Assembly (NCBI GenBank): GCA_050692695.1
Contig: JBOGVI010000149.1
Coordinates: 1 to 40,442, forward strand
Reading direction: 5' to 3'
Length of the DNA: 40,442 bases
Source: Actinomycetota bacterium
Lineage (GTDB): Bacteria > Actinomycetota > UBA4738 > HRBIN12
The notes beneath the pieces are model-generated. The model was not told the origin of the DNA. It saw only the letters and a program-made list of their open reading frames with translations, and made no database searches. Every line of letters starts with the position of its first letter. Position 1 is the stretch's first letter. Below, in pieces: positions 10,497 through 20,241 of this stretch. The position numbers and the translations under genes are program-made.

Positions 10497-10584
10497 GGGG
10501 GTGGCCCCGCCGGGAAGTGGTGCTGGCATCACTGCCGTCCCGGCAAGGCCGGTGGCACGCTATTGGTGAAGGAGACTGCCCGAT

Positions 10585-10956
10585 ATGACGGTCCGAGTGC
10601 TCATCGTGGACGACCAGGGGCCGTTCCGGCAGGCTGCCCGGATGGTCGTGGAGGCCACCGACGGGTTCGAGGTCGTCGGGGAATCCGAGACCGGGGAGGA
10701 CTCGATCGGGAAAGCTCGCGAGCTCCACCCCGACCTGGTGCTGATGGACGTGAACCTGCCCGGGATCAACGGGCTGGACGCCACCAGGAAGATCCTGGAG
10801 GACTCGGGCAACCGGGTCGTGGTCCTGCTCCTCTCCACGTACGAGGAAGAGGAGTACGCGCCTCGGGCCGCCGAGTGCGGCGCCGCCGCCTACATCCCGA
10901 AGGCGGTGTTCGGGTCCGACCGGCTCGAGGCGGCCTGGGCCGCCGCCACCGGCTAG
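10585..10956 (+). CDS. Single-domain response regulator (receiver only, NarL-like subfamily)
   Basis: 123-aa ORF with SD GAAGGAG 10 nt upstream. Complete receiver residues are present: VDD, LMDVNLPG (phospho-Asp), LLST, IPK. No output domain precedes the stop. Confidence 0.85.
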   Translation: MTVRVLIVDDQGPFRQAARMVVEATDGFEVVGESETGEDSIGKARELHPDLVLMDVNLPGINGLDATRKILEDSGNRVVVLLLSTYEEEEYAPRAAECGAAAYIPKAVFGSDRLEAAWAAATG

Positions 10957-11799: not shown

Positions 11800-13911
11800 T
11801 CATTCCGCGGCCGGGCGCGGCCGGGCCCCCTCACGCGCGAGAACGCGACCCCGGATCGTCGTGCCGTGCCCCGGCTCCGATCGGATCTCGACCGTCCCGC
11901 CGATCGCCTCGACGCGGTCCGCCATGCTCTGGAGCCCGGTGCCGCTCGTCTCGGCCTCCGGGTCGAACCCCACGCCGTCGTCGGTCACGTCGAACCGCAG
12001 CTGCCCATCCTCCGCCGCCAGCCGCACCGACACCCGTGATGCCCTCGCGTACTTGGCCACGTTCGTGAGCGCCTCGAGCACGCAGAAGTAGACCGTCGAC
12101 TCCACGTCCTGCGGGTACCGGCCGACGCCGTGGCCATCGATCTCGACCGGCACGTTCGCCTTCCGTGCCTGGCCCTCGAGCGCGGCGACGAGACCCTTGT
12201 CGGAGAGCAGGGGCGGATAGATGCCCCGGGCCAGATCCCGGAGGTTCTGCATGGCGTCGTTCGCTTCGGCCTTGAGCTCGGCGGCCAGCGCCGCGGCCCG
12301 GTCCGGGTCCTTCCGCGTCAGCTGTTCCAGCAGCCGGAGCTTCACGGAGAGCGCTACGAGCTGCTGCTGCGCACCGTCGTGGATGTCGCGCTCGATCCGG
12401 CGGCGCTCCTGGTCTTGCGCCGCCACGATCCGCTGGCGCGACGCGCGGAGCTCTTCGATCAGTCGTACGTTGCGAAGCACCAGGCCGGCCTGGGAGGCGA
12501 GGTCCCGGACCAGCGCCTCCTTGGATGGGTTCATCGGATCGTTCGCGGGCATCGTCACCGAGACGGCGCCGAGGAGCTCGCCCTGGTGGCGTACGGGGAA
12601 CGCCGACGTCTGCGGCCCCAGGTCGGGCAGTTCCTCCCCCTGCATCCGGAGGGGCTTCCCGGCCCTCCCGCCGTCGGGCCAGGCGGCGGCGGGACGCAGT
12701 TCGGGGCCCACCCGGAGCCACACGATGGCCTCACTCGCCCCGGACCCCGCGGCCACGATCTGCGCCATCCGGGGCAGGACGTCGTCGGTCGAGTACGTCT
12801 CGGCCACGCGCTCGGAGAACTCGGAGAGGACCTCGTAGGGGGAGGCGCGCTCCCCGTAGACGAGCCGGTCCGCCAGGCGGCGGGCGGCCCGGCGGACCGG
12901 GTTGAAGGCGAGGGCCACGATGACCGCCGCGGCCAGCGAGAACAGGTCCGCCGACGTCCCGGCGGTCCCCCGGACGGCGAGGGGCACGGCGATGACGACG
13001 CCGAGGTAGACCAGCGCGATGAACGTCGCGAGCACGCCGGCCACGACCGTCTTCTTGACCACGATGTCGAGGTCGTACAGGCGATACCGGAACATCGCGA
13101 CGCCCGCCGCGAGCGGGATGCCGAGTCCGACCGTCAGGAAGAACAGGTAGAAGGAGATCTCGTTCAGGGGAGAGGTCTCGCCGAGGCCGATCCCCGTGAC
13201 GAGGAGGGCGAGGAAGAAGAACACGGCGATCGCTGCCCCGTAGGCGACCCACCGGATCTGTTGCCGCTCCTCCCGCCGTGCCCGTCGGAACCGGACGAAG
13301 AGCGCGGCCGCCGAGGCGAGCGTGGCCCCGATCGTTCCGAACGCAGCAACCGTGAGCACCGGACCGAGGAAGCGCTGGAGGCCCTCGATCGCGAGGGGGT
13401 TCGGGATGCTGACGCTGCCCACATCGAGCATCCGGGTCCTCACCCCGTCGGCCACGAGCCCGAGCCCGCCGAACCCGAACAGCGCCCAGGCCACGGGTCG
13501 CCACCGAGGCGAGGGGAGCGTCCCCGAGGGGAAGAGCAGGAACAGCAGGGGGATCGGCACGACGGCGAAGAAGATGGAGGTATCGGACACGAGCGCGGCG
13601 GCCCGGCCGAACGGCAGCGACCTGAGGGACGTCTCGAACGTGTAGGTGACGTACTCGGAGGCGAATCCATTGAGCAGGAAGGCCATCCCCGCGAGCATGA
13701 AGAGCCACCCGACCGGGTTGCGCGGGAATCGGGACGCGATCACCGCTCCGACCGTCGCGTACCCGGTCAGGATCACGACGGCGATCGGGATGAAGGGGAC
13801 GTCCTCCGAGAAGCTGCCGTTGCGGACGGTCAGGACCATCGTGACCGCGAGCAGGGCCAGCGTCGCGCCCCACAGGATCCAGGGTGTCCGGGAGCGGACT
13901 CCTCGACTCAT
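11800..13911 (-). CDS. Membrane sensor histidine kinase (multi-TM sensor, GAF-like linker, HisKA_3, HATPase_c)
   Basis: 703-aa ORF. About 8-10 TM helices at the N-terminus. H-box ERRRIERDIHDGAQQQLVAL. N box EALTNVAKYA. G boxes DDGVGFD and GTGLQSMADRVEAIGG. Confidence 0.9.
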   Translation of the reverse strand: MSRGVRSRTPWILWGATLALLAVTMVLTVRNGSFSEDVPFIPIAVVILTGYATVGAVIASRFPRNPVGWLFMLAGMAFLLNGFASEYVTYTFETSLRSLPFGRAAALVSDTSIFFAVVPIPLLFLLFPSGTLPSPRWRPVAWALFGFGGLGLVADGVRTRMLDVGSVSIPNPLAIEGLQRFLGPVLTVAAFGTIGATLASAAALFVRFRRARREERQQIRWVAYGAAIAVFFFLALLVTGIGLGETSPLNEISFYLFFLTVGLGIPLAAGVAMFRYRLYDLDIVVKKTVVAGVLATFIALVYLGVVIAVPLAVRGTAGTSADLFSLAAAVIVALAFNPVRRAARRLADRLVYGERASPYEVLSEFSERVAETYSTDDVLPRMAQIVAAGSGASEAIVWLRVGPELRPAAAWPDGGRAGKPLRMQGEELPDLGPQTSAFPVRHQGELLGAVSVTMPANDPMNPSKEALVRDLASQAGLVLRNVRLIEELRASRQRIVAAQDQERRRIERDIHDGAQQQLVALSVKLRLLEQLTRKDPDRAAALAAELKAEANDAMQNLRDLARGIYPPLLSDKGLVAALEGQARKANVPVEIDGHGVGRYPQDVESTVYFCVLEALTNVAKYARASRVSVRLAAEDGQLRFDVTDDGVGFDPEAETSGTGLQSMADRVEAIGGTVEIRSEPGHGTTIRGRVLAREGARPRPAAE

Positions 13912-14492
13912 CGACCGTCCACCCCGACGGTCGCCGGCACGCGGCCGGTGACCGTCGTGCCTCGGTTCGGGGCGCTTCGGATCTGGAGGGTTCCACCGAT
14001 TGCGTCGAGCCGGTCGGCCATGCCCTGGAGGCCGGTGCCGTAGGCGAGGGCAGAAGGGTCGAACCCCACTCCGTCGTCGGAGACCTCGAAGCTCAGACCC
14101 TGGTCGCCGGCCGAGAGCCGGACGGTCGCTTGCGTCGCGTTCGCGTACTTCGCCACGTTCTGAAGGGCCTCGAGGGTACAGAAGTAGACCGCCGTCTCCA
14201 CCTCCTGTGGGAACCGGCCCACGCCATCGACGAGCATGTCGGTTGGTACAGGAGACTTGCGAGCCTGGCTCTCCAGGGCAGCCGCCAATTCTCTGTCTGC
14301 CAGCAGTGGCGGGTAGATGCCGCGGGCCAGGTCACGGAGGTTCTCCAGGGCCTCGTCGGTCTCGCCCTGGAGCCGGCCCAGCATCTCCTTGGCCTTCGCC
14401 GGATCGCGGTCGGCCATCTGCTCGGCCAGTCGGAGTCTCACCGCCAACGCCACGAGCTGCTGCTGAGCCCCGTCGTGAAGGTTCCGCCCCAT
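13908..14492 (-). CDS. Sensorless truncated histidine kinase paralogue (partial H-box + HATPase_c only); possibly a gene remnant
   Basis: Only the last 194 codons of the 312-aa ORF look like protein: MGRNLHDGAQQQLVALAVRLRL...EALQNVAKYA...DDGVGFD...GTGLQGMADRLDAIGG. This part is about two-thirds identical by eye to the C-terminus of the downstream kinase. The upstream in-frame part is Arg/Pro/Gly junk. Its stop overlaps the next start as ATGA (13908-13911). Confidence 0.6.
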   Translation of the reverse strand: MGRNLHDGAQQQLVALAVRLRLAEQMADRDPAKAKEMLGRLQGETDEALENLRDLARGIYPPLLADRELAAALESQARKSPVPTDMLVDGVGRFPQEVETAVYFCTLEALQNVAKYANATQATVRLSAGDQGLSFEVSDDGVGFDPSALAYGTGLQGMADRLDAIGGTLQIRSAPNRGTTVTGRVPATVGVDGR

Positions 14493-14686
14493 GCCCGGAT
14501 TCTCGCCCTCTGCCCCTCGGCGCGGAAGGGTGCCGGCCGAACGGCCGGCGGGAGCTCCACCACCACGCCGGGGGTGCAAGCACCACCGGCTCGTCGGGCG
14601 GCTCTCTCCTCGAACCGTGGTGGCCGCCGGATGGGAAGGGGCCGGCCCGCGGCCTAGCGTCGGGGTCTCAGCGAGAGGAGGTTCCG

Positions 14687-15097
14687 ATGATCCGAAGGAT
14701 CCTGGTGGGGACCGATACCTCTGCCTCCGCGGATCTCGCGGTCGAGGCTGCGGCCGACCTGGCCCAAACCCACCAGGCCGAGCTCCTCGTGCTCTACGTG
14801 CGATCCGACCCCCCGATGCGTGACGCGGCCGACCCTCGCAAGCCACCGGACCCGGATCGCTACCTGTCCCGGATGACCGAGCGGTTCCCGACTCTTCGGA
14901 TCCGGAGTTGGAGCGAGCCCGGCGACCCGGCCGAACGGATCTGCGACGTGGCCGCCGAGGAGCGTGTGGACACGATCGTGGTCGGGAACCGAGGCGTGCA
15001 CGGCCCGAGGTGGCGGGTCCGCGAGAGCGTGCCGACCATGGTCGTGCGCCACGCCCCGTGCTCGGTCTTCATCGTGGACACTCGGGTGGCGCAGTGA
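14687..15097 (+). CDS. Universal stress protein (UspA family)
   Basis: I used the ATG at 14687 (SD GAGAGGAGG at 14673-14681) inside the 365-aa track ORF. MIRRILVGTDTSASADLAVEAA...DTIVVGNRGVHG...VVRHAPCSVFIV is the typical USP fold signature. Confidence 0.85.
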   Translation: MIRRILVGTDTSASADLAVEAAADLAQTHQAELLVLYVRSDPPMRDAADPRKPPDPDRYLSRMTERFPTLRIRSWSEPGDPAERICDVAAEERVDTIVVGNRGVHGPRWRVRESVPTMVVRHAPCSVFIVDTRVAQ

Positions 15098-15120: not shown

Positions 15121-15798
15121 TCAGCCCGCGGCGGGGTGCTCCGTCCCGCGGAAGAACGCGAGCACGGCCATCACCCGGCGGTGGACGTCGGTCTCCTCGG
15201 TCAGACCGAGCTTGTGGAACAGGGAGTTGATGTGCTTTTCTACGGCGCGCTCCGTGAGGAACAAGGACTTGGCGATAGCGGCGTTGTTCTTCCCCTGCGC
15301 CATGTGCCCGAGGACCTCCCGCTCCCGCTCGGTGAGCTGCGCGAGCGGCGAGTGGGCCATCCGGTCCTTCCGTGCGACCAGGGCCTCGACCACCTTGGGG
15401 TCGAGCACGGAGCCGCCCTTCGCCACCTCGGTGATGGCCCGGACCAGCTCGTCGAGATCGGCCACCCGTTCCTTGAGCAGGTACCCGAGGCCCGCGGCAC
15501 CGTCTTTCAGGAGGTCGTAGGCGTAGTCCTCCTCGGCGTACTGGGAGAGCACGACCACGCCGATCTCGGGATGCCCGGCCCGGATCCTTCGGGCCGCGTC
15601 GATCCCCTCCGTAGTGTTCGTGGGCGGCATGCGGATGTCGGTGAGGACGGCCTCGGGCGCGTGCTGTTCCACCGCCGCCAGCAGCTCGTCCAGGCTCGCG
15701 ACGGTGGCCACGAGCTGGATCTGGTCCGACGTCGTGAGCAGGGCGGCCGTCCCCTCGCGGACGAGATAGTTATCCTCCGCGAAGACCACGCGCACCAT
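15121..15798 (-). CDS. NarL/LuxR-family response regulator (REC + GerE HTH)
   Basis: The real start is MVRVVFAEDNYLVREG at 15798, and the 616-aa track ORF is an artefactual extension. Receiver residues are present (ED, TDIRMPP, LS, LLK). HTH is LTEREREVLGHMAQGKNNAAIAKSLFLTERAVEKHINSLFHKLG. Confidence 0.9.
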   Translation of the reverse strand: MVRVVFAEDNYLVREGTAALLTTSDQIQLVATVASLDELLAAVEQHAPEAVLTDIRMPPTNTTEGIDAARRIRAGHPEIGVVVLSQYAEEDYAYDLLKDGAAGLGYLLKERVADLDELVRAITEVAKGGSVLDPKVVEALVARKDRMAHSPLAQLTEREREVLGHMAQGKNNAAIAKSLFLTERAVEKHINSLFHKLGLTEETDVHRRVMAVLAFFRGTEHPAAG

Positions 15799-15843
15799 GG
15801 GCGGATGGTACACGCGCCCGAGACGTAGTTGGAGGGATGAGGG
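15799..15843. promoter_or_regulatory. 45-bp divergent control region between the two paralogous response-regulator genes
   Basis: Only 45 bp separate the two start codons. It contains the SD GGAGGG for the + gene. Both promoters must overlap here or lie inside the partner's coding sequence. Confidence 0.4.
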
Positions 15844-17118
15844 ATGAGCATCCGGGTCGTCCTGGGCGAGGACAACGTGCTGGTCCGTGAGGGGGTCCGG
15901 GCCCTCCTCGACTCGCATCAGGACATCGAGGTGGTTGGCGTCGCCGCCGACGCGCCCGCCCTGCTTGTCGCGGCCGAGGAGCACCGTCCCGACGTCGTGG
16001 TCACCGACATCAAGATGCCCCCAAACTTCCAGCTCGAGGGGATCGACTGCGCGCACGACCTTCGCTCGCGGCACCCCGGGATCGGCGTTGTGGTCCTCTC
16101 CTCCCACGACGACGAGGCATACGCCATCGCGCTCCTGGGCAAGGGCCAGAGTGGCCTGGCCTACCTGCTCAAGGACCGGATCGCCCAGGGCGACGAGCTG
16201 GTTCGAGCCATCCGCGAGGTCGCCGCGGGCGGGTCGGTCGTGGATCCTTTGATCGCGGAGCGCCTGTCCGGCCGCCGAGAGACCGAGGAGGACCGAGAGG
16301 TCCTCGACCTCATGGCCAAGGGTCATGGCTATGCGGAGATGGCCGAGGCCCTCGGTACCACCCAGGAGGCGGTGGACCGCCGGGTCACCGACCTGTTCCG
16401 GAGGCTCGCCGCGTTGGCCGAGGGCGGGGGGAGCGCCGCCGTCGACGAGATGAAGCGACTGCACGCGGCCGTCGTGGAGAAGGAGTCCTCGGCCCGCACC
16501 CTCCGTTCCTTCGTGCCCCAGCAGTTCGCGGCGAAGCTGGCTGCCGGCGGGGCGGCCGCCGAGCAACAGGAGGCCGAGGCCACCGTCCTGTTCTCCGACA
16601 TCCGCGGCTTCTCCGCTCTCGCCGAGCAGCTGTCGGCTCGGGAGATCGCCGACATCCTGGCCCGCCATCTCTCGGCCATGGCGGAGATCGTCGTGGCGCA
16701 CGGCGGCATGCTCGACAAGTTCGCGGGCGACGCGGTGATGGCGGTGTTCGGTGTCCCGGACCCCGCGCCGGATCACGCCGAGCGGGCCCTCCGGTGCGCC
16801 ATCGCCATGCAGGCTCGGCAGGCGGAGCTCAACCGGGACGGGTGGACGGAGACGCTGAGCGAGCTGGGGATGGGGATCGGCGTGAACACCGGCACCGTTG
16901 TGGCCGGGACCGTTGGCGGCGGCGGCCGGCTCGAGTACACGGTCGTGGGGGACGCCGTGAACATCGCGCAACGGCTCCAGAGCGAGGCCGACGGCGGCGA
17001 GATCATCGCCTCGGCGTCCACGGTGGCGGCGGCCCCGAGCATCGCGGCCGAGCCGATCGGGCCGCGCCCGGTGAAGGGGCGGAAGGATCCGGTCGACGTT
17101 TTCCGCGTAGTGAAATGA
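15844..17118 (+). CDS. Response regulator fused to a LuxR-type HTH and a class III adenylate/guanylate cyclase (REC-GerE-CYC)
   Basis: 424-aa uninterrupted ORF. REC: GEDNVLVREG, TDIKMPP, VVLSS, YLLK. HTH: REVLDLMAKGHGYAEMAEALGTTQEAVDRRVTDLFRRL. Cyclase: ATVLFSDIRGFS, LDKFAGDAVMAVFG, GIGVNTGTVVAG, VVGDAVNIAQRL. Confidence 0.9.
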   Translation: MSIRVVLGEDNVLVREGVRALLDSHQDIEVVGVAADAPALLVAAEEHRPDVVVTDIKMPPNFQLEGIDCAHDLRSRHPGIGVVVLSSHDDEAYAIALLGKGQSGLAYLLKDRIAQGDELVRAIREVAAGGSVVDPLIAERLSGRRETEEDREVLDLMAKGHGYAEMAEALGTTQEAVDRRVTDLFRRLAALAEGGGSAAVDEMKRLHAAVVEKESSARTLRSFVPQQFAAKLAAGGAAAEQQEAEATVLFSDIRGFSALAEQLSAREIADILARHLSAMAEIVVAHGGMLDKFAGDAVMAVFGVPDPAPDHAERALRCAIAMQARQAELNRDGWTETLSELGMGIGVNTGTVVAGTVGGGGRLEYTVVGDAVNIAQRLQSEADGGEIIASASTVAAAPSIAAEPIGPRPVKGRKDPVDVFRVVK

Positions 17119-17309
17119 CCAGGCCGAAAAGCGTGTTCCGTCGCGTGGAGCGGTGGTCGGTGGGGTTGGCCATGGGCGTTCTGGCCTTCGTCCTGGAGCG
17201 AGCCGTGGTCCGCTCGATCCGAAAGGGCGAGACCAAACCGAAGCCTCCCCAGCCGACCGCGATGAAGGGCACCGGTTCCGAGATCTCGCCTGCCGGGCCG
17301 GGAGACTAG
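17115..17309 (+). CDS. Hypothetical 64-aa single-pass membrane protein, translationally coupled to the cyclase gene
   Basis: The ATG at 17115 overlaps the cyclase TGA as ATGA. Sequence is MTRPKSVFRRVERWSVGLAMGVLAFVLERAVV, with one hydrophobic helix and then a Lys/Pro-rich tail. No recognisable family. Confidence 0.4.
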   Translation: MTRPKSVFRRVERWSVGLAMGVLAFVLERAVVRSIRKGETKPKPPQPTAMKGTGSEISPAGPGD

Positions 17310-17316
17310 CCCGGGT

Positions 17317-19413
17317 TTAGTTGCGGCGGAGCAGGTCCACGATCAGGCCCACCGTGAGCAGCCCGGCGAGGGCGCCGAACCCGACCGGGATCCAGTCGGA
17401 GACGCGCTCCGCGGCCACGGTGAGGCCGGTGGCGAGCACCGCGGCTCCCGCGGTAAGTCCCAGGGCCAATCGCCGCCCGGCCCGCCGGATCGTGTTCTCC
17501 AGCGACGCCGCCCGGAAGTTCACCTCGAGCTTCTGCCCGGGCCTCGCCCCGATCAGCCGCTCCACGGCCTCCACGATCCGCAGGAACCGGACCTTGATCC
17601 GCTGCGACTGGTAGAAGAGAGCTTTCGGGTCCAGCTTCGACCCCATTCCCGAGAGCACCTGCCGCATCAGGAACTTCCCGGCCACGTCGAACGGGTCGAG
17701 GTCCGGGTCCAGCTCGGCGGTAGCAAGCTGCATCTGCGCGAGCGCCTTGCCGGTCAACGCGAGCGACGCCGGCAGCGGCACGTCGTGACGGATGGCGATC
17801 TCCGTCATCTCCTGGAGGATTGGGCCGAGCCGGATGTCGGACAGGGAGGCCGTGCGGTACTTCGCCATCATCTCGCCGATCTCCGAGCTGAACCTGTCCG
17901 CGTCGAGATCGCTCCGGTCGATCGCCCCGGCCAGCATCAGCGTGACGTCGGTGAGGAACCCCACGTCCTCCTGCCAGAAGGCCATCAACAGGAGCATCAA
18001 CTCCTCGCGCATGTCGGCGCCGACCTCGCCCACCATGCCGAAGTCCAGGAAGTAGATGCGGTCGTTCCACCACATGAGGTTCCCCGGATGCGGGTCGGCG
18101 TGGAAGAACCCGTGCACGAGGATCTGCTTGTAGTAGCTCTCGAGCAGCTGGCGAGCCGCGTCCTTGCGCTCCGGTCCCTCCGGCGCCTTCGAGATCGGTC
18201 CGCCTTGGATCTCCTGCATCACCAGCAGGCGCGACGTCGACAGGTCGTCGTGGACGCCCGGCACCGACAGGCGCGGGTAGTCCCGGAGGACGTGGCTCAT
18301 CCGCTCGATGTTCGAGGCCTCCTGGCGGAAGTCGAGCTCGCGGTGGAGCGACGAGGACAGGTGCTCGAACACCGCGCCCATGTCGATCACCTGCTTCAGG
18401 CCTGGTCGGACGGAGACCTTCTCCGCGAACAGTTCGAGGAGGGCGAGGTCCTGCTCGATCTCCTCCCGGGCGGTGGGGCGCTGGACCTTGGCGACCACGC
18501 GCTCGCCGCCCGTCAGCGTGGCCCGGTGGACCTGGGCGATCGTCCCAGCGGCCATGGGCCGAGGGTCGATGGATTCGAACACGTCCTCCCAAGGCACGCC
18601 GAGCTCTTGCTCCATCACGTGAACCACTTCCTCTTCGGTGAGCGGCGGCACGTTGTCCTGGAGCGTCGCGAGCTCCTCGATGAACTCCGGGGGAAGGAGG
18701 TCGGGACGGGTCGAGAGCACCTGGCCGAGCTTGGCGAACGTCGGACCCAGCTCCTCCAGGGCGGAGCGGAGGTGCTTGGCCTGCTTGCGACGGCCGGTAG
18801 TTATCTCCTCGTCCGCCTTGCCGAACAGGGCCTTCACCCCGTGCTTCGTCATCACGGCCGCGATGCGCGCGCCTCGCGCCGCGAGGCGCGGCTCCGTCTC
18901 GGGGACCTCGCCCTCGCGGATGACCCGCGTGGTCCGAACGACCTGCGCCGTCACGCCGTCGGGCGAGAAGGTGTTGACGATGATCACCGTGCAGGTTGCG
19001 TTGTGCGAGATCCGGTTCGGGACGTTGCCGAGCAGGAACTCTTTCCGTCCGGCCATGCCCGCGTTGCCGACGACGAGGACGTCCGCTCGCTCTTGCTCCG
19101 ACGCTCGGACGATGGCCATGGCCGGATCGTCGTCCACGAGCACCAGGGACCGGGCCCGGTCCCCGGCCAGCTCGAACGCGAGCTTCTGGAGCTCGTCGGA
19201 GGCGGCTCCGGCCCGGGTACCCTCGGCCGCCCCGTACTCGGTTACGGCGGGGCTGGTGGGGACGACCACCTGGACCAGGAACAGCTCGGCGGCGTATCGG
19301 TCGGCGAGCGCCGCGGCCCATCCCACCGCGCGATCGGCGGTCTCGGAGCGGTCGGTGGCCACCATGACCCGAGAGACGCCGGGCGACGTGCGAGATGTGT
19401 TCTGGGCTGGCAT
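17317..19413 (-). CDS. USP domain fused to an ABC1/UbiB (AarF-type) atypical protein kinase with a C-terminal membrane anchor
   Basis: 698-aa ORF. The N-terminal ~150 aa are USP (RVMVATDRSETADRAVGWAA...VLVVGNAGMAGRKEFLLGNV...CTVIIV). Next comes ABC1 (LGPTFAKLGQVLSTRPDLLPPEFIEEL, AAGTIAQVHRA, HADPHPGNL, LDFGMVG). Two TM helices lie at the C-terminus. Confidence 0.9.
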   Translation of the reverse strand: MPAQNTSRTSPGVSRVMVATDRSETADRAVGWAAALADRYAAELFLVQVVVPTSPAVTEYGAAEGTRAGAASDELQKLAFELAGDRARSLVLVDDDPAMAIVRASEQERADVLVVGNAGMAGRKEFLLGNVPNRISHNATCTVIIVNTFSPDGVTAQVVRTTRVIREGEVPETEPRLAARGARIAAVMTKHGVKALFGKADEEITTGRRKQAKHLRSALEELGPTFAKLGQVLSTRPDLLPPEFIEELATLQDNVPPLTEEEVVHVMEQELGVPWEDVFESIDPRPMAAGTIAQVHRATLTGGERVVAKVQRPTAREEIEQDLALLELFAEKVSVRPGLKQVIDMGAVFEHLSSSLHRELDFRQEASNIERMSHVLRDYPRLSVPGVHDDLSTSRLLVMQEIQGGPISKAPEGPERKDAARQLLESYYKQILVHGFFHADPHPGNLMWWNDRIYFLDFGMVGEVGADMREELMLLLMAFWQEDVGFLTDVTLMLAGAIDRSDLDADRFSSEIGEMMAKYRTASLSDIRLGPILQEMTEIAIRHDVPLPASLALTGKALAQMQLATAELDPDLDPFDVAGKFLMRQVLSGMGSKLDPKALFYQSQRIKVRFLRIVEAVERLIGARPGQKLEVNFRAASLENTIRRAGRRLALGLTAGAAVLATGLTVAAERVSDWIPVGFGALAGLLTVGLIVDLLRRN

Positions 19414-19451
19414 GCCCTCGCATTATCCCTGCGGGTTGGCCAACGGACCAT

Positions 19452-19460
19452 TGGTAGACT
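19452..19460 (+). promoter_or_regulatory. Candidate extended -10 element (TGgTAGACT) for the tRNA-Thr gene
   Basis: TGG-TAGACT ends 10 nt before tRNA position 1. It lies in the 57-bp gap between the divergent USP-ABC1 start and the tRNA. No good -35 element. Confidence 0.35.
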
Positions 19461-19470
19461 CGGCCACGCC

Positions 19471-19547
19471 GCCGGAGTAGCTCAGCCTGGCAGAGCAACC
19501 GCCTCGTAAGTGGTAGGTCGAGGGTTCGAATCCCTCCTCCGGCTCCA
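19471..19547 (+). tRNA. tRNA-Thr (anticodon CGU), CCA encoded
   Basis: Hand-folded cloverleaf. Acceptor GCCGGAG/CTCCGGC. D arm GCTC-AGCCTGGCA-GAGC. Anticodon arm ACCGC-CTCGTAA-GTGGT (U33, CGT, A37). Variable loop AGGTC. T arm GAGGG-TTCGAAT-CCCTC. Discriminator T plus CCA. Total 77 nt. Confidence 0.9.
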
Positions 19548-19590
19548 ACTCCCGCGCGCGCAGCGAAGGCTCCTTGTTAGAATCGCCGCC

Positions 19591-20241
19591 GTGCTGCCCC
19601 AGGTCTCCATCAGTCCCAACGCGTCGCCGACGATCAACACCGGCGGGTGGGTGTACGGGATGGCCGTGCTGCTCGTGGTGCTGGGCATCGTGGTGACGCT
19701 CCTCATCGTGTTCGGGTACATGCGGTACGCGCCGAGGTTCCAACGCGCTGAGGGGGAGCCGAGGACGATGAAGGCGCCCCGCGTGCAGCCCGGCAAGGAG
19801 GTCCGGCGCCCGGTGAAGATCACCGGCGCGCCCGTGATCGCGCCGTCTCCCCTCGCGGCGGCCTCGGCGGCGCCGTCGGCGCCGGCGGCCTCTGCCGCTC
19901 GGGCTCCTTCGGCTGCCGCTTCAGCCCCGATCCCGGCGGCTGCACAGGGCACGGCTGGGGGTCCCCCGGCCGCCTCCGTCGCCGCCGAGGTGCCTGCTGC
20001 CCCTCCGCCCGCAGCCGAGGCCTCCGCTGCTCCCGCCCCCATCGCCGCACCCGCGGCCTCCGCTGCTCCGGCCGCCGCCGCTCCACCCGCGGCGGGCGAG
20101 CACAAGGAGGTCTCGCTCGACCAGGGGACGTTCGAGAAGACCCTGGCCGAGCTGCTGGAGAAGGGCACCGACCGCCGGGTGGCCGAGGGGCAAGCCCGGC
20201 GCGCCGCCTTGATCGCGGCGAGGAAGAAGGCCGGGGGCTAG
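19591..20241 (+). CDS. Hypothetical membrane-anchored Ala/Pro-rich protein
   Basis: The track ORF (19510) overlaps the tRNA, so a later start is needed: in-frame GTG at 19591 or ATG at 19660. One TM helix (WVYGMAVLLVVLGIVVTLLIVFGYM). Then ~90 aa of Ala/Pro/Ser low complexity and a charged helical C-terminus (TFEKTLAELLEKGTDRRVAEGQARRAAL). Confidence 0.5.
   Translation: MLPQVSISPNASPTINTGGWVYGMAVLLVVLGIVVTLLIVFGYMRYAPRFQRAEGEPRTMKAPRVQPGKEVRRPVKITGAPVIAPSPLAAASAAPSAPAASAARAPSAAASAPIPAAAQGTAGGPPAASVAAEVPAAPPPAAEASAAPAPIAAPAASAAPAAAAPPAAGEHKEVSLDQGTFEKTLAELLEKGTDRRVAEGQARRAALIAARKKAGG

Follow-up and report, generated by a model that had tools for sequence, protein, structure and literature searches.

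A universal stress protein–UbiB fusion in an actinomycetotal genome belongs to a conserved two-part module of fused or adjacent genes

We analyzed a 40,442-nt stretch of DNA, here called the window, that spans positions 1 to 40,442 (forward strand) of contig JBOGVI010000149.1 in GenBank assembly GCA_050692695.1, a metagenome-assembled genome (MAG) of the Actinomycetota (UBA4738; HRBIN12). The study centered on one gene, P0001, which encodes a universal stress protein (USP) domain followed by a UbiB/ABC1 kinase-like domain and a predicted C-terminal membrane hairpin. Comparison across genomes placed this gene in a conserved module of USP and UbiB, encoded either as one fused protein or by adjacent, tightly coupled genes. 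The gene, its parts and the element preceding it are as follows.

17317..19413, (-): whole USP-UbiB gene P0001, 698 aa; a single open reading frame (ORF) with Pfam Usp and ABC1 matches; 177 of the 201 class genomes have full-length orthologs
19422..19427, (-): −10-like box GATAAT, ending 8 nt before the ATG; read from the sequence
18976..19374, (-): USP domain, residues 14-146; Pfam PF00582, with the same coordinates in a genome-wide profile scan and Protein Data Bank (PDB) matches to TTHA0895, Rv1636 and TeaD
18895..18966, (-): variable disordered linker, residues ~150-173; predicted local distance difference test (pLDDT) values <50 in both structure models, least conserved part in 94 orthologs, and the place where the stop and new start fall in split versions
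18664..18894, (-): UbiB-specific N-terminal helical extension, residues ~174-250, with KLGQ at 228-231; model helices at 174-248, aligned with the KxGQ region of Rv3197, near-invariant
17962..18663, (-): ABC1 kinase-like core, residues 251-484; PF03109, with the same coordinates in the genome scan, invariant catalytic residues and a Foldseek match to COQ8A (template modeling (TM) score 0.74)
17410..17472, (-): predicted transmembrane helix 1, residues ~648-668; Kyte-Doolittle 19-mer value >1.5, model helix 636-667
17329..17394, (-): predicted transmembrane helix 2, residues ~674-695; Kyte-Doolittle 19-mer value up to 2.1, model helix 674-695

P0001 is a single genuine gene with both domains intact and signature residues conserved. 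From its ATG start it runs through 698 codons with zero internal stops, and the GC content at third codon positions (GC3) in this single frame is 0.89 for the USP domain, 0.96 for the linker and 0.93 for both the ABC1 and transmembrane parts. A preliminary description of the DNA had proposed the architecture of Usp, ABC1/UbiB and two transmembrane helices, which is borne out by Pfam matches, motifs and two hydrophobic segments; every motif that it quoted was located in the 698-aa protein at the place given. The N-terminus, whose failure to match USP profiles had been named there as a ground for refutation, matches PF00582 (Usp) over residues 14-146 with 89.3 bits (E 4e-25, cut-off 24). The same description had considered two separate genes with an internal true start, for which the continuous frame and uniform GC3 give no indication. 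An annotation artefact of this kind, either two genes or a true start downstream of the USP part, could draw on the in-frame ATG/GTG codons at residues 154, 187, 188 and 193 and on the split USP and UbiB versions known from other lineages. However, the gene in the window contains neither a stop codon nor a frame change, no Shine-Dalgarno-like sequence was found ahead of its internal in-frame starts, the linker has the GC3 of coding sequence, a single frame is kept in more than 100 genomes and a conserved −10-like box lies just 5′ of the annotated start. We, therefore, regard an artefact as extremely improbable.

In most orthologous loci (including L011-L018 and L026; loci, genomes and families are numbered with the prefixes L, G and f), the box recurs as cATAATGCg or GATGATGCG, with 5-12 nt between it and the start, and it is assigned solely from this cross-locus conservation. 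A scan of positions 17000-19700 for consensus sigma-70 promoters called nothing. The placement of the box points to an mRNA with no leader, or a very short one, that would begin at the annotated ATG and thus include the USP part. A 730-aa ORF at 17306..19498, which lies in another frame and overlaps the tRNA-Thr(CGU) gene, was rejected as spurious. Separately, in two genomes of the same genus (G004:C10:38235-40312 and G008:C232:3463-4568), the USP-UbiB gene was found in several pieces in different frames, likely reflecting assembly frameshifts or recent decay.

To place the gene in its lineage, we used 201 genomes, 109 of them of high quality, from the class of the host, which consists of a single order with eight families. 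The fusion was present at full length and in one frame in 177 of these (~88%), including 96 of the 109 high-quality genomes, with orthologs 58-97% identical. A sample of 400 genomes from the phylum added families f49 and f79 and part of family f18, while the remaining actinobacterial UbiB homologs are 30-38% identical, match only residues ~175-697 and are hence unfused. Proteins combining Usp and ABC1 and 73-97% identical to the window protein form more than 120 clusters at 90% identity. Fused proteins also occur in a second radiation, at 42-47% identity to the window protein. Some of its records are labeled Solirubrobacterales, one of them bearing the name ‘Universal stress protein (Usp):ABC1 family’, and in the Joint Genome Institute annotation many fusion records carry a double name for both domains. 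Among the records, all of which are from MAGs, there was no cultured carrier, and the best 150 representatives at 50% identity included no fusions from other phyla. A 2005 survey of domain architectures by Krupa and Srinivasan recorded an ABC1 protein of Nitrosomonas europaea that carries a Usp domain at its N-terminus (PMC1262709). This protein and the database-named Usp:ABC1 records share the domain order Usp then ABC1 with the protein studied here and are bare architecture listings without function.

The preliminary description would have been refuted by a fusion that is widespread and already explained. Its first half applies, as the fusion is both widespread and catalogued; the second does not, since a full-text literature search found no functional study or explanation of a Usp-ABC1 fusion. 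The fusion is common in uncultured soil Actinomycetota, and the window copy is a further member of an already catalogued architecture, not a new kind.

Evidence for a functional unit comes from lineages in which the two parts are separate. In at least nine genomes of family f18, the orthologous UbiB (47-57% identity) is encoded without a USP domain attached. In these unfused cases, a USP gene always lies immediately upstream of the UbiB gene on the same strand; in three genomes, the USP stop codon is followed a few codons on by UbiB in the same frame, and in the remaining ones the frames differ. Split f18 USPs and the fused USP have the signature GNxGMSxRKEFLLGNVPNRVSH in common. A maximum-likelihood tree of the UbiB parts grouped all USP-associated sequences (43 rows), fused or split, into one clade with 100/100 support versus unfused outgroups. 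Members of this USP-coupled clade are 42-97% identical, against 30-38% in comparisons with other actinobacterial UbiBs. Within it, the split f18 genes group together in a single subclade and a further split case, G028 from family f5, nests among the fused sequences, so the state must have changed at least twice. USP and UbiB, thus, constitute a conserved two-part module, present fused or as adjacent, tightly coupled genes, and by the classic reasoning from fused versus adjacent genes the two probably work together physically. In six f18 loci (L034, L035, L038, L039, L040 and L042), the gene immediately preceding the USP gene, in the same orientation, encodes an MsbA-like ABC exporter (ABC_membrane plus ABC_tran); at L034:9689-13648, the two genes share 8 nt. 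The arrangement looks like an exporter-USP-UbiB operon. Because other neighbors vary, with this exporter in f18 loci and a signaling island in five further families (see below), USP is the sole universal partner of this UbiB. New in this work are the fused/split evidence for the module, the definition of the clade and its signature motif, and the finding that a link to a neighboring cyclase gene is lineage-specific rather than obligate.

We examined residue conservation in two sets, one of 94 fused orthologs and one of 45 sequences reaching down to 42% identity. The USP domain features the motifs ATD at 19-21 and G116-x2-G119-x9-G129-N130 (VVGNAGMAGRKEFLLGNV). Positions T20, D21, G116, G119, M120, R123, F126-L128, N130, N133, R134 and H137 are invariant in both sets, with G129 conserved at ≥90%. 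The nucleotide-binding-type glycine motif pointed out in the preliminary description is, therefore, retained across the 45 sequences, with Asn as its final residue. In a PDB sequence search with the USP part, the ATP-type protein TTHA0895 ranked first and Rv1636 second (E 3e-8); overall, the ATP-binding USPs TTHA0895, TeaD and MJ0577 match as well as or better than cyclic AMP (cAMP)-type USPs. The domain shares its fold (TM score 0.7-0.79) and the ATD and G-x2-G-x9-G motifs with nucleotide-binding USPs of the UspFG/MJ0577 class, comprising MJ0577, TTHA0895 and TeaD as well as the cAMP-binding Rv1636 and MSMEG_3811. It differs from them in ending the motif with an invariant Asn instead of Ser or Thr, in its own signature LLGNV(P/A)NRxxH and in its coupling to UbiB, either covalently or by operon. 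Because this terminal Asn is itself invariant, the nucleotide pocket appears to be preserved and may have its own specificity. The closest functional analogy is TeaD (PDB 3hgm), a USP that binds ATP and is said to act as a regulator of the membrane transporter TeaABC. Being among the best matches in both sequence and fold, TeaD provides a precedent for a USP as the ATP-dependent regulator of a membrane machine.

USPs are typically dimers, which is one point in favor of a role as a scaffold only, in which the USP would sense no ligand and act as a dimerization or docking module for UbiB dimers or partners. The Asn in place of the third-motif Ser/Thr would fit such a role, as would N133, R134 and H137, which sit on helix alpha-4 in our second structure model and could belong to an interface rather than the pocket. 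Nevertheless, strict invariance of T20/D21, G116 and G119 and the ≥90% conservation of G129 down to 42% identity are as predicted for a preserved nucleotide pocket, and alignment to TTHA0895 and Rv1636 shows that the conserved positions are those used by ATP-binding USPs. A pure scaffold, therefore, seems rather unlikely to us.

By sequence and fold, the C-terminal part is a UbiB-family protein. PF03109 (ABC1) matches residues 251-484 with 219.3 bits (E 6e-65, cut-off 22.9), and weaker Pfam APH and RIO matches overlie the same kinase-like core. UbiB signatures comprise KLGQ at 228-231, the Ala-rich loop AAGTIAQVH at 288-296, VAKVQ with K309, HADPHPGN at 438-445 and DFG at 457-459 (D457), with all catalytic positions invariant in both conservation sets; KLGQ and the Ala-rich loop align with their Rv3197 counterparts. 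The KxGQ extension, Ala-rich loop, catalytic Lys, HxDxHxGN loop and DFG Asp are shared with the UbiB/ABC1/ADCK family, including Escherichia coli UbiB, yeast Coq8 and human COQ8A/B, and the C-terminal transmembrane hairpin predicted here is shared with bacterial UbiB. Segments ~648-668 and 674-695 are the only hydrophobic 19-mers of the 698-aa protein. Compared to this family, the window protein adds the N-terminal USP domain. Its nearest solved structures by sequence are Rv3197/MABP-1 (5yjz, E 1e-34) and then MSMEG_1954 (7cy2, E 9e-31), both UbiB-fold ATPases of Actinomycetota that, in contrast, have no USP domain and belong to a different clade.

With Rv3197/MABP-1 as the best structural match by sequence, the protein could be an ATPase that takes hydrophobic antibiotics or other small molecules as ligands and aids tolerance, perhaps together with an exporter. 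MABP-1 is a macrolide-binding ATPase conferring inducible resistance (PMC6208485, PMC8696161), and the exporter gene ahead of the split pair in f18 would suit such a function. On the other hand, the MABP-1 model NF050082 scores 120 bits against a cut-off of 800, the UbiB model TIGR01982 fits much better (321 bits), the C-terminal transmembrane hairpin region matched here is absent from MABP-1 and no exporter gene lies near the gene in the window. We consider this function improbable.

Intact kinase-like catalytic residues raise the question of a true protein kinase, with the ABC1 domain phosphorylating the tethered USP or other proteins and the USP acting as a substrate instead of a regulator. 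A plant ABC1K is reported to be an Mn2+-dependent protein kinase (PMC8956952), and some USPs are phosphoproteins (cited in PMC1262709). However, the KxGQ extension and Ala-rich loop, which in COQ8 disfavor protein substrates, are fully conserved, and COQ8A/B are described as ATPases rather than trans kinases (PMC13418538), making protein kinase activity distinctly unlikely.

Structure prediction was consistent with these domain assignments. A first AlphaFold2 run with 30 sequences at ≥66% identity gave a mean pLDDT of 69.5 and left the USP nucleotide loop and helix unmodeled. We judged this an artefact of alignment depth, as a second run with the deeper set of 45 sequences restored the fold. 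The second model (mean pLDDT 80.3) contains a canonical five-stranded USP with low confidence only in the nucleotide loop 121-129, a disordered linker at 150-173, the helical extension at 174-248, a kinase-like core with pLDDT 85-97 and two long terminal helices. Foldseek searches against the PDB identified COQ8A (5i35, E 4e-17, TM score 0.74), Rv3197/MABP-1 and MSMEG_1954 (TM score 0.75) for the C-terminal part and TeaD, cAMP-bound MSMEG_3811, MJ0577 and TTHA0895 for the N-terminal part, in agreement with the PDB sequence searches for both.

For information about possible substrates, we searched the host genome, a 2.9-Mb MAG of 86.5% completeness, for quinone genes and UbiB paralogs. P0001 is its one true ABC1 gene; three other matches are weak, partial and to kinase-like cores. 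MenA was detected with 225 bits (cut-off 102), while within the limits of this completeness no UbiA exceeded its cut-off (best TIGR01474 score 92 bits, cut-off 275) and no futalosine-pathway MqnA/D was found. These data agree with the menaquinone-using organism assumed in the preliminary description, and because MenA is present and no UbiA passes its cut-off, ubiquinone is an unlikely substrate.

Taken together, we lean, with slightly better than even confidence, toward a USP-tethered, membrane-anchored UbiB ATPase that acts on prenyl lipids and is modulated via its nucleotide-binding USP. In this reading, a cytoplasm-facing ATPase would be held on the membrane by the C-terminal two-helix hairpin, and a flexible linker of ~25 residues would tie the UbiB N-terminus to an ATP-type USP domain. 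By analogy to COQ8 and E. coli UbiB, ATP hydrolysis by the UbiB part would drive the binding and extraction of hydrophobic prenyl lipids from the membrane, as for COQ8, an ATPase that extracts coenzyme Q intermediates from membranes through a pocket gated by ATP hydrolysis (PMC13418538). Menaquinone or its precursors would be the most likely substrates. The exporter gene next to the USP-UbiB pair in f18 was counted toward a lipid or hydrophobic cargo. The USP part would bind an adenine nucleotide, most likely ATP, in its G-x2-G-x9-G-N pocket and, probably as a dimer, dock on or release the KxGQ extension that covers the UbiB active site. In this way, the energy or stress state of the cell would determine how active UbiB is, a ligand-gated control that we infer from analogy.

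Several observations weigh against this model. The best NCBIfam match, TIGR01982 (UbiB), reaches 321.4 bits and lies under the equivalog cut-off of 487.55, and NF003404 gives 246.8 bits against 667 while spanning model positions 48-513 of 529; because both scores fall well below their cut-offs, the protein is, as judged by its sequence, not the UbiB of ubiquinone synthesis. Menaquinone as a substrate is suggested by analogy and the host quinone genes only. Asn130 stands where ATP-binding USPs have Ser or Thr, and the USP ligand could, therefore, differ. Both AlphaFold2 runs gave predicted TM scores (pTM) of 0.56-0.60 and no confident USP-UbiB interface; with a pTM of 0.60 and a disordered linker, the second model does not predict how the two domains are placed relative to each other. 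Lastly, ~12% of the class genomes are without the gene, which must, therefore, be dispensable.

UbiB/COQ8-family proteins are ancient, nearly universal and relevant to disease. To our knowledge, nothing is known about upstream control of their ATPase activity. A large natural clade with a USP fused to or encoded just upstream of UbiB represents a genetically separable regulator-enzyme pair, of which the fused form suits assays in cis and the split form reconstitution in trans. For USP domains, most of whose biochemical outputs are obscure, the module would likewise supply an enzyme as a defined partner. Its value lies in this practical entry to UbiB regulation, as an experimental handle, and not in surprise, given that the architecture is already in databases.

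We then considered the genomic neighborhood, for which the relevant features are the following.

19471..19547, (+): tRNA-Thr(CGU), called by ARAGORN; divergent, 57 nt from the start codon, and also upstream in most f1 and f3 loci
15844..17118, (+): receiver - degenerate helix-turn-helix - class III cyclase gene, convergent; Pfam Response_reg and Guanylate_cyc
15121..15828, (-): NarL/LuxR-type response regulator; Pfam Response_reg and GerE
14654..15097, (+): stand-alone USP of another subfamily; Pfam Usp (E 2e-25), motif G-x2-G-x9-E-S with the third glycine lost, 32% identical to the fused USP
11800..13911, (-): GAF-HisKA_3-HATPase histidine kinase with DevS/NarX-type architecture; Pfam, with 1-3 paralogs in the same island of relatives

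On the upstream side, the tRNA gene is followed by Zincin_2, hpt and ftsH. Downstream, the order is receiver-cyclase gene, NarL-type regulator, stand-alone USP, kinase fragment and GAF-HisKA_3 kinase. Two positional statements of the preliminary description hold: the USP-UbiB gene converges on the cyclase gene, with a gap of 198 nt, and a second, stand-alone USP described as ~2 kb away lies 2.2 kb from its 3′ end. The stand-alone protein is a member of another USP subfamily, in which the motif is degenerate. At 32% identity and with the third motif glycine replaced, the two USPs are not recent duplicates.

The island with the receiver-cyclase gene adjoins the USP-UbiB gene in families f1, f2, f3, f4 and f7. 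This adjacency persists where the ftsH-side neighbors are gone and gene order is rearranged (L019, L020 and L022); for example, the USP-UbiB gene of L022 lies between regulator and kinase on one strand, and that of L019 is divergent from the stand-alone USP gene. Such conservation is relevant to a cAMP-gated UbiB, in which the USP would be a cAMP receptor like Rv1636/MSMEG_3811 that reads the output of the neighboring receiver-cyclase and places UbiB under two-component control via cAMP. The convergent cyclase gene only 198 nt away, its retention through rearrangement in five families, the presence of Rv1636 and cAMP-bound MSMEG_3811 among the best USP matches in sequence and fold, and the many class III cyclases in these genomes are all in line with this idea. 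Presence and absence, however, are independent. The receiver-cyclase ortholog is unlinked or absent in f5, f6, f8, f18, f49 and f79. G029, G037 and G260 contain the fusion without it, G028 and G039 contain both unlinked, and G018 and G032 contain the cyclase ortholog without the fusion. In f18, f49 and f79 loci, neither the fused nor the split genes have a cyclase gene nearby. We, thus, rejected obligate co-occurrence of the fusion with the class III cyclase, a point that the preliminary description had proposed to check. The ATP-binding TTHA0895, TeaD and MJ0577 match the USP equally well or better, and cAMP-binding USPs of the Rv1636/MSMEG_3811 type have been reported from three genera only (PMC11107214). 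On balance, cAMP gating appears unlikely. The adjacency, which is the usual state in the class of the host, suggests use in the same stress program and not obligate biochemical coupling. Independently of this locus, class III cyclase-domain genes are very numerous in the class, with at least 20 matches at E < 1e-20 in each of G029 and G039, most in open frames of more than 1000 aa.

A broader version of nucleotide control, which we also see as a long shot, would make the USP a receptor for a signaling nucleotide, either cAMP from the adjacent cyclase or another alarmone, that switches the sole UbiB of the cell; a redox/hypoxia-type kinase island would in this way reprogram menaquinone or prenyl-lipid handling in dormancy. 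If true, such a receptor would be the first regulator to be defined upstream of a UbiB-family protein. The island shares GAF-HisKA_3 kinases, a NarL-type regulator and a USP gene with DosR/DevRS-type dormancy loci of mycobacteria, in which the USP gene Rv3134c accompanies devR-devS. A search for DosR boxes gave no positive.

An operator-like element was identified in the island. The perfect palindrome GGTGCAAGCACC occurs at 14573-14584, ~70 nt upstream of the stand-alone USP gene, and GGTGC-N2-GCACC is conserved at the same place in most orthologous loci. A copy with one mismatch lies at 10519-10530, 55 nt upstream of a receiver-only gene at 10585. The palindrome may be the operator of the NarL-type regulator of the island. 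It also precedes the USP-UbiB gene in a few loci (L011-L013). In the window, no copy precedes the USP-UbiB gene, a difference to DosR/DevRS loci, and the palindrome is overall no more frequent there than expected by chance; co-regulation of the stand-alone USP and USP-UbiB genes through this element is, therefore, not supported.

Two further observations concern the neighborhood. The ORF at 13908-14846 (-), upstream of the GAF kinase gene, encodes only HisKA_3 and HATPase_c and has no sensor region, and relatives contain one to three full-length paralogous kinases at the place of this fragment. In the 198-nt convergent gap, a terminator-like GC hairpin with a T-rich tail at 17298-17314 (+) overlaps the end of a 64-aa ORF at 17115-17309, itself without a Pfam match.

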